Shown: piece after piece, positions 4,912-6,541 of the stretch
How the letters are laid out: every line of letters begins with the position of its first letter
Position numbering within the stretch: position 1 is the first letter of the stretch
IMG/VR virus record: IMGVR_UViG_2703718777_000022
DNA length: 10,045 nucleotides
Direction: 5' to 3' (one strand)
Source of the DNA: a virus
Taxonomy: Duplodnaviria; Heunggongvirae; Uroviricota; Caudoviricetes
The notes under the pieces: generated by a model
What the model was told of the DNA's origin: nothing
What the model saw: only the letters and a program-made list of their open reading frames with translations
Database searches by the model: none
Program-made: the position numbers and the translations under genes

Positions 4912-5084
4912 GTAAACGTGACGACCCACAATTGCGGGTACGCATCCCGCAAGACTTGAAAGACGCACTGGAAAAAATTTCCAGAGAAAACGACAGAACA
5001 CTAACCGCCGAAATCACCCGGCGGTTACGTAAAAGTTTAGAGGATGAATCCACTATTCATTCTCAGGATTTAGCAACTTCTTAA
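4908..5084 (+). CDS. Arc-like ribbon-helix-helix DNA-binding protein (58 aa, GTG start); absent from the ORF track
   Basis: GTG at 4908-4910 overlaps the VRR-NUC stop (TGA 4909-4911); GGAGG at 4895-4899. Translation is VSKRDDPQLRVRIPQDLKDALEKISRENDRTLTAEITRRLRKSLEDESTIHSQDLATS, stop TAA 5082-5084. The strand-helix-helix pattern (RVRIP...L...A...TLT.EI..RL) is Arc/Mnt-like. The first 45 aa are a close paralog of the N-terminus of the minus-strand gene 5053..5382. Confidence 0.5.
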   Translation: MSKRDDPQLRVRIPQDLKDALEKISRENDRTLTAEITRRLRKSLEDESTIHSQDLATS

Positions 5085-5382
5085 GTTTTTCCATCGCTTC
5101 AATAAGCTCGTATTTGTTTTCATAAACCCATTCGGCCTGATACTCTCGATGGTACGTTGTTTTAAGTTTCTCGAGAAGATCCCTGAGTATGAGAATCTCA
5201 TCAGCAGCTTCCTCAAACCCCCTAGATGTATGAAGTAATTTGTCCTGAAGAATAGTAGATTCCAACCGGCTAACGATCTCAGAGGTCAGTGTTCTCTTAT
5301 TAGCCCGTGCTTTCTTCTCCAAAGCCTCTTTTAGCAATTCTGGTATGCGTACCCTCAACTGCGGGTCGTCTCTTTTGCTCAT
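5053..5382 (-). CDS. Mnt-like repressor: N-terminal RHH domain plus C-terminal helical extension
   Basis: 109 aa. N-terminus MSKRDDPQLRVRIPELLKEALEKKARANKRTLTSEIVSRLE is an Arc/Mnt-type RHH; the C-terminal ~60 aa are charged and helical-looking (LRDLLEKLK...EAMEKLKKLL), consistent with an oligomerisation domain. AAGGGA lies 6 nt upstream of the ATG on the minus strand. Roughly 42% GC by eye, lower than its neighbours. Its 3' end overlaps the plus-strand RHH gene by 32 nt. Confidence 0.7.
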   Translation of the reverse strand: MSKRDDPQLRVRIPELLKEALEKKARANKRTLTSEIVSRLESTILQDKLLHTSRGFEEAADEILILRDLLEKLKTTYHREYQAEWVYENKYELIEAMEKLKKLLNPENE

Positions 5383-5399
5383 ATATGATCCCTTGAAAG

Positions 5400-5479
5400 T
5401 GTGAGGACAACATGCCTCACAAACATGTTGACTTCAAGCCTCATTGTGAGTACTAATAAATAAAGTCCTCACAATGAGT
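5400..5479. promoter_or_regulatory. operator-like repeat array with a candidate rightward promoter, in the divergent region between the Mnt-like gene and the small-ORF/Rha genes
   Basis: tgtgagg (5400-5406) and cctcaca (5415-5421) form a palindrome. ctcattgtgag (5440-5450) is the exact reverse complement of ctcacaatgag (5469-5479). caacatg and catgttg form a further inverted pair at 5408-5430. A -35-like TTGACT sits at 5428-5433, followed 17-18 bp later by an A/T-rich stretch (tactaataaataaa) that could supply a -10; the -10 hexamer itself is ambiguous. Confidence 0.45.
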
Positions 5480-5498
5480 ACAAAACAAGGCTAAAGCT

Positions 5499-5675
5499 AT
5501 GGCTATTCAGATCACACAGTTACATCAGGCAGATATTTTCGGGTATATCGCAGACATGCTGGAAACAGCGAGACTTCTCAGTTCGCTGGAGAAAGGAGAG
5601 CAGTTAGCTTTTGAATTGATTTATTTTGCGCAACAGGCCGCAAGGGAAGCAGCAAACAAGCCGTGGGATGAATAA
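5499..5675 (+). CDS. small hypothetical protein (58 aa) upstream of the Rha gene; absent from the ORF track
   Basis: ATG at 5499 preceded by AAGG at 5487-5490. Translation is MAIQITQLHQADIFGYIADMLETARLLSSLEKGEQLAFELIYFAQQAAREAANKPWDE, stop TAA 5673-5675. It occupies the position that arc holds in the P22 immI operon but does not look like an RHH protein. Coding status is uncertain. Confidence 0.3.
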   Translation: MAIQITQLHQADIFGYIADMLETARLLSSLEKGEQLAFELIYFAQQAAREAANKPWDE

Positions 5676-5734
5676 ACAAAACACGCTGATAGTTGCAGCT
5701 ACCAGCGCATCTTTTACTGAATGGAGAATACAGC

Positions 5735-6541
5735 ATGAATACTTTAACACTGATAAACGATACCAAGCAACCAATGATGGGCAGCCGGAAAATTGCAGAA
5801 GTCACTGGCAAACAGCATAAGCATGTTGTACGGGATATTCTGGCTATGCTTGAACAGTTACAAATCTATAGTCCAGATTTGGATGATGATGATTTTAAAG
5901 GATTTATTATCAAGCGCAAAGAATACAAGGGACGTGATGTCATCGACGAGATTTGGCTTGATGAAAATCTTTCCATGACTCTCGTCACCGGTTACGACGC
6001 AAAACGCCGGCTGGCACTCATCGAACAGTGGCAGGCGATGAAGATTGAATTAGAGCAACCTCGTCCGGCATCATTACCGGTGCCAGCTCCTGCAATTCAG
6101 GTAAACGACAACATCGTTCAGTTTGCCCGTGTCGTTGCAGAAGCTACGGCATCCGCCACGATGAAAGCAATTGTCGAAGTGATGGCTCCCCGGCAAGTTC
6201 AAAACGTAACGCTTTCAACTCCGGGACATGAAACCAACTGGGTAGAAGACTTAAAACAACAAGTCAGAGAGTCACAACCACACAGTAACGGTGAATATGT
6301 CCCCGTCAGCAAAGCAGCATGGAAAACAGGTTTATCTGATTCAACATGCCGGAAATTGATCGGCTTCGCCAGGATACCGGTACGTTCAGACACCTGTGTT
6401 CGGGGATTGCTCGTTAAGCTCCCAGCGATCGAACAAGCAGCTCAAAAGCTGTTAAACGAATCGACACCGCCGAAAGGTAACCGCAAGCGCTGGAGACATC
6501 CGCAGTTTGGCAACTTCACCTACTACACCGATCTAATCTGA
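5735..6541 (+). CDS. Rha family phage regulatory protein (putative antirepressor-like); C-terminal domain unknown
   Basis: GGAGA at 5723-5727, 7 nt before the ATG at 5735; the track's upstream ATG at 5693 lacks a comparable RBS. The N-terminal segment SRKIAEVTGKQHKHVVRDILAML matches the remembered Rha signature (S..IAE..GK.H.NVLRDI). Confidence 0.7.
   Translation: MNTLTLINDTKQPMMGSRKIAEVTGKQHKHVVRDILAMLEQLQIYSPDLDDDDFKGFIIKRKEYKGRDVIDEIWLDENLSMTLVTGYDAKRRLALIEQWQAMKIELEQPRPASLPVPAPAIQVNDNIVQFARVVAEATASATMKAIVEVMAPRQVQNVTLSTPGHETNWVEDLKQQVRESQPHSNGEYVPVSKAAWKTGLSDSTCRKLIGFARIPVRSDTCVRGLLVKLPAIEQAAQKLLNESTPPKGNRKRWRHPQFGNFTYYTDLI

Follow-up and report, generated by a model that had tools for sequence, protein, structure and literature searches.

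The immI region of phage P22 is the textbook model both for the recognition of DNA by ribbon-helix-helix (RHH) proteins and for antisense control, and is mostly treated as a peculiarity of the P22-like podoviruses. Whether a switch of this design also resides in an unrelated prophage family is the question raised by a stretch of tailed-virus DNA of 10,045 nucleotides (IMG/VR record IMGVR_UViG_2703718777_000022; hereafter, the window, that is, the whole stretch analyzed). In the window, a gene for an Mnt-like RHH protein is separated by an operator-like array from a divergently oriented pair of genes, a small open reading frame (ORF), denoted orf58, and a gene of the Rha family. The original prediction, made from the sequence alone, interpreted positions 5053-6541 as an immI-like antirepressor module; all the elements it named are indeed present, but the Arc-like RHH gene was left outside the span, and the cassette actually extends over 4908-6541. 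We find that this cassette is probably homologous to P22 immI in design and, at least in part, in descent, and that it probably constitutes a self-contained secondary-immunity switch.

Two RHH paralogs and their control region

The Mnt-like gene (5053-5382, minus strand) encodes a protein of 109 aa that matches the Pfam Arc family (E 2.9e-9) and, in profile searches, the PDB entry 1MNT (E 0.0024) and AmrZ (E 1e-5), and is 38% identical to P22 Mnt over 50 aa (BLASTP). The protein consists of an N-terminal RHH domain and a C-terminal extension of ~60 residues that looks helical from the sequence. The gene lies 116 bp from orf58 and is transcribed away from it; the Pfam Arc match, the match of the second gene of the opposing operon to PF09669 and the strands all agree with the arrangement initially proposed, namely, an Mnt-like gene divergent from a small ORF and a Rha gene. 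The Arc-like paralog, likewise as proposed, is located on the far side of the Mnt-like gene (4908-5084, plus strand; 58 aa, GTG start; Pfam Arc E 1.4e-9; 33% identity to P22 Arc, with a pairwise E of 2e-11) and converges on it, with a 32-bp overlap.

The GTG start codon of the Arc-like gene overlaps the stop codon of the VRR-NUC gene (GTGA) and, therefore, to judge from the gene layout, the Arc-like gene closes the upstream early-left operon, to which it is translationally coupled. Such an overlap with the stop codon of the upstream gene recurs in the Salmonella and Serratia loci and in every arrangement examined, the preceding gene being VRR-NUC in Escherichia coli and Serratia and SNF2 in Salmonella. 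No plus-strand terminator separating the Arc-like gene from the remaining cassette was found by a terminator scan. On the minus strand, the scan reported a hairpin with a weak T-run 3' of the Mnt-like stop codon (5002-5027) which may be the terminator of the Mnt-like transcript, an uncertain assignment; the hairpin is kept in most type-A loci (see below) but not in locus L013, and lies inside conserved Arc-like codons. The Arc-like gene evolves under strong constraint, with a ratio of nonsynonymous to synonymous polymorphism (pN/pS) of 0.07-0.16 between loci. Residues 1-14 are identical between the Arc-like and Mnt-like proteins, and yet 7 of the 8.8 synonymous sites differ. Because the identity persists in the face of saturated synonymous divergence, selection appears to keep one and the same DNA-reading strand in both RHH paralogs.

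Evidence on what these strands read comes from relatives of the cassette. More than 30 related loci were recovered from genomes of E. coli, Salmonella and Serratia and from viral contigs, and among these, there are 19 distinct control regions. In the loci of type A, both paralogs carry the strand PQLRVRIP and the sites are of the CTCAC..GTGAG type; in those of type B, the strand is LQFKLR(V/L/I)P in the Arc-like protein and QMK(I/V)R in the Mnt-like one, and the sites are CCACnGTGG. Across the 19 control regions, the RHH type and the repeat type covary without exception. Furthermore, P22 Omnt has the same core as the type-B operators, CCACGGTGG, and is equally far from its promoter. In locus L004, from E. 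coli O121, orf58 and rha are as in the window but the Arc/Mnt pair is a different one, and the intergenic region differs from that of the window too, with three copies of ACCACGGTGGT. Such covariation has the form of a classic immunity-specificity swap and is strong indirect evidence that the Mnt-like and Arc-like proteins read their own repeats. The cassette also appears to travel as a unit, because its place relative to SNF2 differs between hosts: before this gene in E. coli and Serratia, and after it in Salmonella.

The operator-like array that had been noticed between the divergent genes stands up to a count against shuffled sequence. The 10-kb window holds two copies of the repeat CTCANNNTGAG, both of them intergenic (5440-5450 and 5468-5478), compared to 0.10 expected, and none of 200 shuffles reaches two; all three copies of CCTCACA in the window fall within 5400-5473. 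The repeats are arranged around a candidate rightward, Pant-like promoter for orf58 and rha (5428-5456, plus strand), with the -35 hexamer TTGACT (5428-5433), a 17-nt spacer and the -10 hexamer TACTAA (5451-5456), which aligns with P22 Pant (TTGACA-17-TATATT); TTGAC(A/T) is found in every distinct control region except for that of L006 (TCGACA). The predicted operator O2 (CTCATTGTGAG, 5440-5450) is within the promoter spacer, the position of Oarc in P22, whereas O3 (CTCACAATGAG, 5468-5478) is just 3' of the -10 hexamer, the position of Omnt. The third operator, O1 (CCTCACAAACATG, 5415-5427), is well formed in its left half and degenerate in the right one, and its center is 7 bp to the left of the -35 hexamer, a position common to L013 (CCTCACGGTGTG) and all type-B loci. 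Relative to TTGACT, the window repeats are at -7, +17 and +45; across the loci, the operator centers are at -7, +17/18 and +41 to +49 from the -35 hexamer, and in P22, the Omnt core is at +43 from the -35 hexamer of Pant, which is the O3 position. To the left of the array is an inverted half-site, TGTGAGGAC (5400-5408), in the orientation opposite to that of O1 and kept as TGTGAGTAC in L008 and L011.

The Mnt-like gene itself has a candidate leftward promoter (5409-5437, minus strand), with TTGAAG as the -35 (5437-5432), 17 nt of spacer and CATGTT as the -10 (5414-5409). This promoter is weak in the window allele and contains O1 in its spacer; in the type-B loci and in L013, there is a good TTG(A/C/T)TG-17-CATA(A/C)T, again with O1 in the spacer. 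A strict consensus promoter scan reported neither the rightward promoter, which it missed because of a hexamer without T at position 6, nor the leftward one, and the support for both is comparative.

A predicted sar-like antisense unit

The original prediction missed one further component of the cassette, a predicted sar-like antisense unit on the minus strand, at ~5665-5770. The 59-bp spacer between orf58 and rha harbors a 15-bp hairpin which, when folded as the minus strand, reaches -22 kcal/mol (z -2.6), whereas the plus-strand fold is no better than those of shuffled sequences (z -0.03). In an alignment of ten loci, the hairpin consists of 14 pairs, 5 of which show compensatory double changes. 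The pairing cells account for 97% on the minus strand versus 81% on the plus strand, with 23 G-U cells, and when the partner columns are slid, pairing falls to 25-48%. A T-run follows the hairpin 3' on the minus strand in all loci, and the Serratia-type loci have no plus-strand T-run. The plus-strand z value, the G-U pairs and the minus-strand T-run together speak against a role of this hairpin as a plus-strand attenuator, and this reading was rejected.

The predicted antisense RNA (5665-5734, minus strand) would be ~55-70 nt long, with its 5' end near 5734, and would comprise the hairpin (5713-5678) and a U-run. It is complementary to the ATG of rha and to the GGAG in front of it (5723-5726), and its 3' end overlaps the orf58 stop codon. 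The candidate promoter (5741-5770, minus strand) has the -35 hexamer TTGCTT (5770-5765) and, after 18 nt, the extended -10 element TGTTAAAGT (5749-5741), and is located within rha codons 2-12, the extended -10 falling within codons 2-5. A -10 of the form TA(A/T)(A/T)(G/T)T is present at the same position in 13 loci, with the upstream TG kept in most of them, and the effectors of those 13 loci have unrelated N-termini, namely, two Rha subtypes, KilA-N and Bro-N. In the alignment of the antisense -10, the columns G, T, A and T are invariant. Another promoter-like site on the minus strand (5913-5886), the sole hit of the strict scan, was dropped, as it is not conserved across the effector subtypes.

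The predicted geometry is identical to that annotated in the P22 record (15021-15125), where sar is 70 nt long and starts 1 nt before the ant ATG, with Psar within the first ant codons and the terminator abutting the arc stop codon. When the two are aligned, P22 Psar (TGCTATACT) is directly followed by ATTCAT, and so is TGTTAAAGT of the window. The antisense RNA has no match in Rfam, sar-like families included, and no nucleotide-level match to sar.

In one distant type-B cassette (L038, 1066-1253), which encodes a short Mnt-like protein of 76 aa, only 10 nt separate orf58 from rha; this cassette may be a natural variant without the antisense layer.

The regulated operon: orf58 and Rha

The first gene of the regulated operon, orf58 (5499-5675, plus strand), encodes an acidic protein of 58 aa and is a real gene, as indicated by its pN/pS of 0.21-0.42 across four loci. 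It occupies the position of arc and, as initially noted, does not encode an RHH protein: the hhalign comparison with the RHH alignment gave a probability of 0.2% and a profile search of PDB yielded noise only, so that the notion of a diverged Arc was rejected. The AlphaFold2 (AF2) model of orf58 is a helical hairpin (helices 10-28 and 34-53; pLDDT 76); the coil-helix-helix order of the monomer is compatible with a degenerate RHH, and no supporting evidence for an RHH was obtained. Searches of Pfam, PHROG, NCBIfam, PADLOC and PDB returned no matches.

The orf58 family is small, with 20 clusters at 90% identity and 9 at 50% identity among 1.84 billion representatives, and homologs down to ~50% identity are still within the same cassette. 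A scan of genome contigs for orf58 found a single Serratia locus. In every recovered locus with sufficient flanking DNA, orf58 is inside the cassette, and swaps of the RHH type and of the effector leave its association with the control region intact. One metagenomic protein of 251 aa (P0149; L036, 1741-2496), a single example on a 3-kb contig, combines a Bro-N domain and an AP2-like segment with an orf58-like domain at the C-terminus (hhalign probability 96.5%; 42% identity over 45 residues). This fusion is a possible Rosetta-stone link and hints that orf58 works together with the effector class. From its distribution, orf58 appears to be a conserved partner within the switch.

The second gene of the operon, rha, occupies 5735-6541 on the plus strand and encodes 268 aa. 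The likely start is the ATG at 5735, with GGAG 8 nt upstream (this is also the start chosen by PGAP), and not the TTG at 5693. The Rha domain (PF09669) scores 41.2 bits, above the gathering score of 29.9, over residues 29-117 of the long ORF; the match to TIGR02681 is below the cut-off (21.7 versus 45.95). The region downstream of the Rha domain had been described as an unassigned C-terminal domain of about 160 aa that could carry a new effector function. This description did not hold. In the AF2 model, built from 43 homologs, a winged helix (~15-107) is followed by a helix (125-149), a disordered linker (150-185) and a confidently modeled C-terminal domain of 80 residues (186-265). As modeled, this domain is a winged helix-turn-helix (wHTH) of the MerR/excisionase type, with the beta-alpha-alpha-beta-beta-alpha fold of Xis, MerR N-domains, RacA and Par, which rules out a new effector fold. 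A sequence-profile search of PDB with the C-terminus gave only spurious matches to the RSV fusion protein, and the best viral structural match is a roi-type "DNA-binding protein".

In the relatives of the cassette, the effector slot is occupied by Rha+wHTH, Rha+ANT (L031), KilA-N+ANT (L005, L029, L030) or Bro-N (L013). That the slot is filled from this shuffled, antirepressor-like set is the main argument, by analogy, for an Ant-like role of Rha.

Two additional observations pertain to the effector. In P22 itself, a gene named rha and labeled "anti-repressor" (39575-40180; L034, 2076-2501) is located 3' of the lysis genes, outside immI, and thus, Rha-type genes occur without immI-type control in the model phage too. 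In the Serratia-type cassettes (L005, L029, L030 and L031, ~4158-4250), the effector frame extends upstream across the hairpin without a stop codon, as far as an ATG with a strong Shine-Dalgarno sequence (CAGGAGG) within the 3' part of orf58, an arrangement that is missing in the window allele; use of this ATG would yield long and short forms of the effector, reminiscent of P1 Ant1/Ant2.

Relation to P22 immI and rival explanations

Comparison with P22 supports the originally proposed immI logic in large part. Five of eight immI features were found, namely, an Mnt-type repressor, operators overlapping the promoter, a second RHH paralog, a predicted sar-type unit and a separate immC; the other three, arc as the first gene, distinct Arc and Mnt operators, and an AntA/ANT effector, were not. 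Covariation, operator geometry and the sar-like unit support the proposed logic more firmly than the initial reading of the sequence could; the position of arc, the distinctness of the operators and the type of effector set the cassette apart from P22. Common to the two systems are an Mnt-type RHH gene divergent from the regulated operon; a TTGAC(A/T) promoter with operators in the spacer and at the start site, which match here at the sequence level; a small first gene of ~55 codons; and an antisense RNA of ~60-70 nt, predicted here, with the extended -10 in effector codons 2-5, the 5' end at the start codon and the terminator abutting the stop codon of the first gene. In both cases, the cassette is embedded in a long lytic operon in the same orientation, with only mnt reversed, and in addition, the P22 Omnt core CCACGGTGG is used by the type-B relatives. 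Both phages also have a separate CI(S24)/Cro region: in the prophage studied here, the primary immunity region, with CI (HTH_3 + Peptidase_S24) and a Cro of the P22_Cro family, is located ~7 kb upstream of the cassette, and the label "secondary immunity" is accordingly apt.

There are differences as well. The first gene is the non-RHH orf58 instead of arc, and the Arc-like gene is found at the end of the upstream operon, converging on the Mnt-like gene. There is one DNA-reading strand and one operator type, used three times, in contrast to the distinct Oarc and Omnt of P22; the effector is Rha with a MerR-like wHTH rather than AntA/ANT; and the site of insertion is the early-left replication operon rather than the late "ant moron" site.

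Other known systems share parts of the design. The immI region of P1 and P7 encompasses the c4 antisense RNA, icd and ant1/ant2, c4 being processed from the same transcript. It resembles the cassette in that the antirepressor gene directly follows a small ORF and the synthesis of the antirepressor is under antisense-RNA control; it differs in that P1 is not known to have an RHH repressor, and no sequence relationship is known. The "ant morons" of P22-like phages (epsilon34, CUS-3, HS-1, Sf6, HK620) are variable, independently regulated cassettes in a conserved operon, some of which have mnt and an antirepressor gene, without arc in the operon (PMC2629481); the present cassette is inserted in a conserved operon in the same manner, but the ant morons are placed between the head and tailspike genes of P22-like podoviruses. 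Finally, domain-shuffled regulators combining KilA-N, Bro-N or Rha with ANT (KilAC), and Xre-Bro repressor-antirepressor pairs, have been described (PMC2701414). These are similar to the cassette in the shuffling of the effector slot and in the pairing of each effector with a small DNA-binding repressor, whereas the cassette has an RHH protein in place of Xre and the extra layers of a second RHH paralog, orf58 and an antisense RNA.

The computational observations concern the parts and their covariation, the spacing of promoters and operators, the conserved antisense promoter and its hairpin, and the domain folds; from these, we infer how the proteins would bind, in what order events would unfold, what the Arc-like protein would do and that Rha would act as an antirepressor. 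In a lysogen, the Mnt-like protein would be made from its own weak leftward promoter and would bind O1-O3, which lie next to the -35 of the rightward promoter, within its spacer and at its start site, silencing orf58 and rha and regulating the promoter of its own gene. Upon infection or induction, the rightward promoter would fire briefly in a repressor-free cell; transcription of the early operon would then deliver the Arc-like protein, which is expected on the same operators because its DNA-reading beta-strand is identical, and would shut the promoter again. The same early-operon transcription would run antisense through the Mnt-like gene and on into orf58 and rha; in P22, late-operon transcription also crosses the immI cassette (PMC2629481). 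The constitutive antisense RNA of ~60 nt would limit the translation of Rha from read-through or residual mRNA by covering the ribosome-binding site and start codon of rha, as sar does for ant. Rha, a two-domain DNA-binding-like protein of the shuffled Rha/KilA-N/Bro-N + ANT class, would most likely, by analogy with this class, antagonize a repressor, be it the CI of the prophage itself or a repressor of a co-resident prophage; the alternative is that Rha binds directly to DNA.

We also consider, tentatively, that the cassette represents a distinct class of immI-type switches, in which RHH paralogs of the same specificity bring in a lysogen input and a lytic input and, in addition, orf58 is a new regulator, either a partner of the effector or an acidic RHH decoy. 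This possibility fits the data because orf58 stays through effector swaps, a fusion of Bro-N with an orf58-like domain exists, and the family is nearly confined to the cassette. If it holds, the effector promoter would integrate a "lysogen" signal, from the prophage-state promoter, and a "lytic" signal, from the tail of the early operon.

Several observations weigh against an immI-type switch with an antirepressor as its product. Both the rightward -10 (TACTAA) and the leftward promoter match the consensus weakly and went unreported by the strict scan, O1 is degenerate in the window allele, and the distant cassette L038 has no antisense hairpin. The Arc-like protein could, instead of acting as a repressor, antagonize Mnt by entering heterodimers devoid of the C-terminal extension, and orf58 has no family match that would point to a role. 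Rha has neither an AntA nor an ANT domain, both of its domains being DNA-binding folds, and full-length Rha homologs with 52-55% identity are found in Klebsiella and Yersinia prophages, in early-left operons, without a dedicated repressor or cassette, and therefore, Rha is not intrinsically in need of immI-type control.

These unguarded homologs, together with the roi-type match, leave room for an alternative in which the control architecture is the same but Rha is a sequence-specific DNA-binding regulator whose expression is timed by the cassette; its role might be that of a transcription factor, or of a Roi/Rha-type factor with phage DNA, host DNA or the directionality of recombination as its target. 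We regard this version as possible but doubtful. In the relatives, the same slot holds KilA-N+ANT and Rha+ANT, where ANT is the Pfam "phage antirepressor protein KilAC domain", and the PHROG families that match the N-terminal half of Rha are labeled anti-repressor, if only as an annotation label.

A different explanation is suggested by what lies beyond rha. Downstream of its stop codon is a perfect 7-bp GC stem (6549-6566, plus strand; GCGCGGG-ATTA-CCCGCGC), between rha and the SNF2 helicase gene, which could serve RNA stability or processing, or protein binding. Because this GC-rich hairpin has no T-run and is not a canonical terminator, transcription past rha probably continues into the SNF2 helicase and xis genes; the terminator scan found no plus-strand terminator in 4800-6700. 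The intergenic promoter might then be an internal, repressor-gated promoter for the helicase and the excisionase, with orf58 and rha as passengers, and an xis-like gene is indeed downstream in all arrangements. We consider this unlikely: the cassette follows SNF2 in Salmonella and precedes it in E. coli and is therefore not tied to SNF2, the predicted dedicated antisense RNA at the effector ribosome-binding site would make the effector the regulated product, and the related phage vB_EcoM-606R2 expresses its helicase without such a cassette.

Least probable of all is that the cassette is a toxin-antitoxin-like (TA-like) or abortive-infection/defense moron, in which the RHH protein and the antisense RNA silence a toxic effector to be released by an incoming phage: although the unit is mobile, with variable sites and a swappable effector, as morons are, other accessory genes (TIR-like, AntA) are found in the same operon region of relatives, repressor/Bro-Ant pairs have been noted as TA-like (PMC2701414) and Ant/KilA-domain proteins can be toxic (PMC5944126), no PADLOC defense model matches the four cassette proteins beyond a negligible E of 0.009, the repressor gene is divergent from the effector, unlike in the co-transcribed type II TA systems, homologous Rha genes are unguarded in early operons, and the layout is that of immI element by element, sar included.

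The prophage context and the significance of the cassette

The window corresponds to the right arm of a prophage beside yfhL, and its sequence is found with 100% identity in the chromosomes of several E. coli strains of the Shiga-toxin-producing type, bovine as well as human. From left to right, it encodes a DUF2800 nuclease, DUF2815, a reversed 199-aa ORF, a family-A DNA polymerase, an ANR/PerC-like protein, DUF4406 and VRR-NUC; then the cassette, with the Arc-like RHH gene (plus), the Mnt-like RHH gene (minus), the 116-bp control region, orf58 (plus), the 59-bp spacer and rha (plus); and then the SNF2 helicase, an excisionase-like HTH gene and the integrase (minus), followed by yfhL. The 199-aa ORF (1446-2045, minus strand), which opposes the replication operon between the DUF2815 and DNA polymerase genes, is labeled hypothetical in RefSeq and has hydrophobic segments at both the N- and C-terminus; it looks like a moron, possibly encoding a membrane or superinfection-exclusion protein. 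The gene after the polymerase (4141-4356) encodes an ANR/PerC-like small protein of 71 aa (PerC E 0.0022, under the Pfam cut-off), possibly another transcription factor in the same operon. At this post-polymerase position (L003, 225-989, and L004, 228-989; L002, 1810-2571), an AntA-domain gene, "phage antirepressor Ant" (PF08346, E 6.5e-27), is found in related prophages and a TIR-like gene in phage vB_EcoM-606R2, neither of which is present there in the window. This position is a second variable accessory slot and, with AntA in it, some relatives therefore hold two antirepressor-like genes. The record NZ_AP042506 lists the VapE-domain primase gene of the prophage (L001, 10103-12289) as a pseudogene interrupted by an internal stop codon, and in this strain at least, the prophage may be replication-defective.

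Among 50,697 phage records, none encodes orf58 or a close Mnt-like homolog, that is, the cassette was not found in sequenced phage isolates. Literature searches found no described Arc/Mnt-Rha cassette and no experimentally proven Rha-domain antirepressor. The direct epidemiological weight of the cassette is small because only 19 of 5426 complete E. coli genomes carry it.

For the biology of immI, the cassette shows the design on the move as a unit: in prophages of E. coli, Salmonella and Serratia that belong to an unrelated family, it is installed in the early operon. It brings with it an Arc paralog that appears to take its input from elsewhere, a new small protein where P22 has arc, and an effector slot in which all the classic antirepressor-like domain families alternate. 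The cassette is a compact system for studying the evolution of RHH specificity, with two natural classes in which one substitution in the DNA-reading strand goes with the operator type, Q-R-R with CTCAC and Q-K-R with CCAC, and for finding out what Rha, KilA-N and Bro-N proteins do. It could also show whether the prophages of Shiga-toxin-producing strains influence one another's induction via such modules. The existence of the cassette is unsurprising in principle, and as a natural variant of a textbook switch, it is unusually informative.

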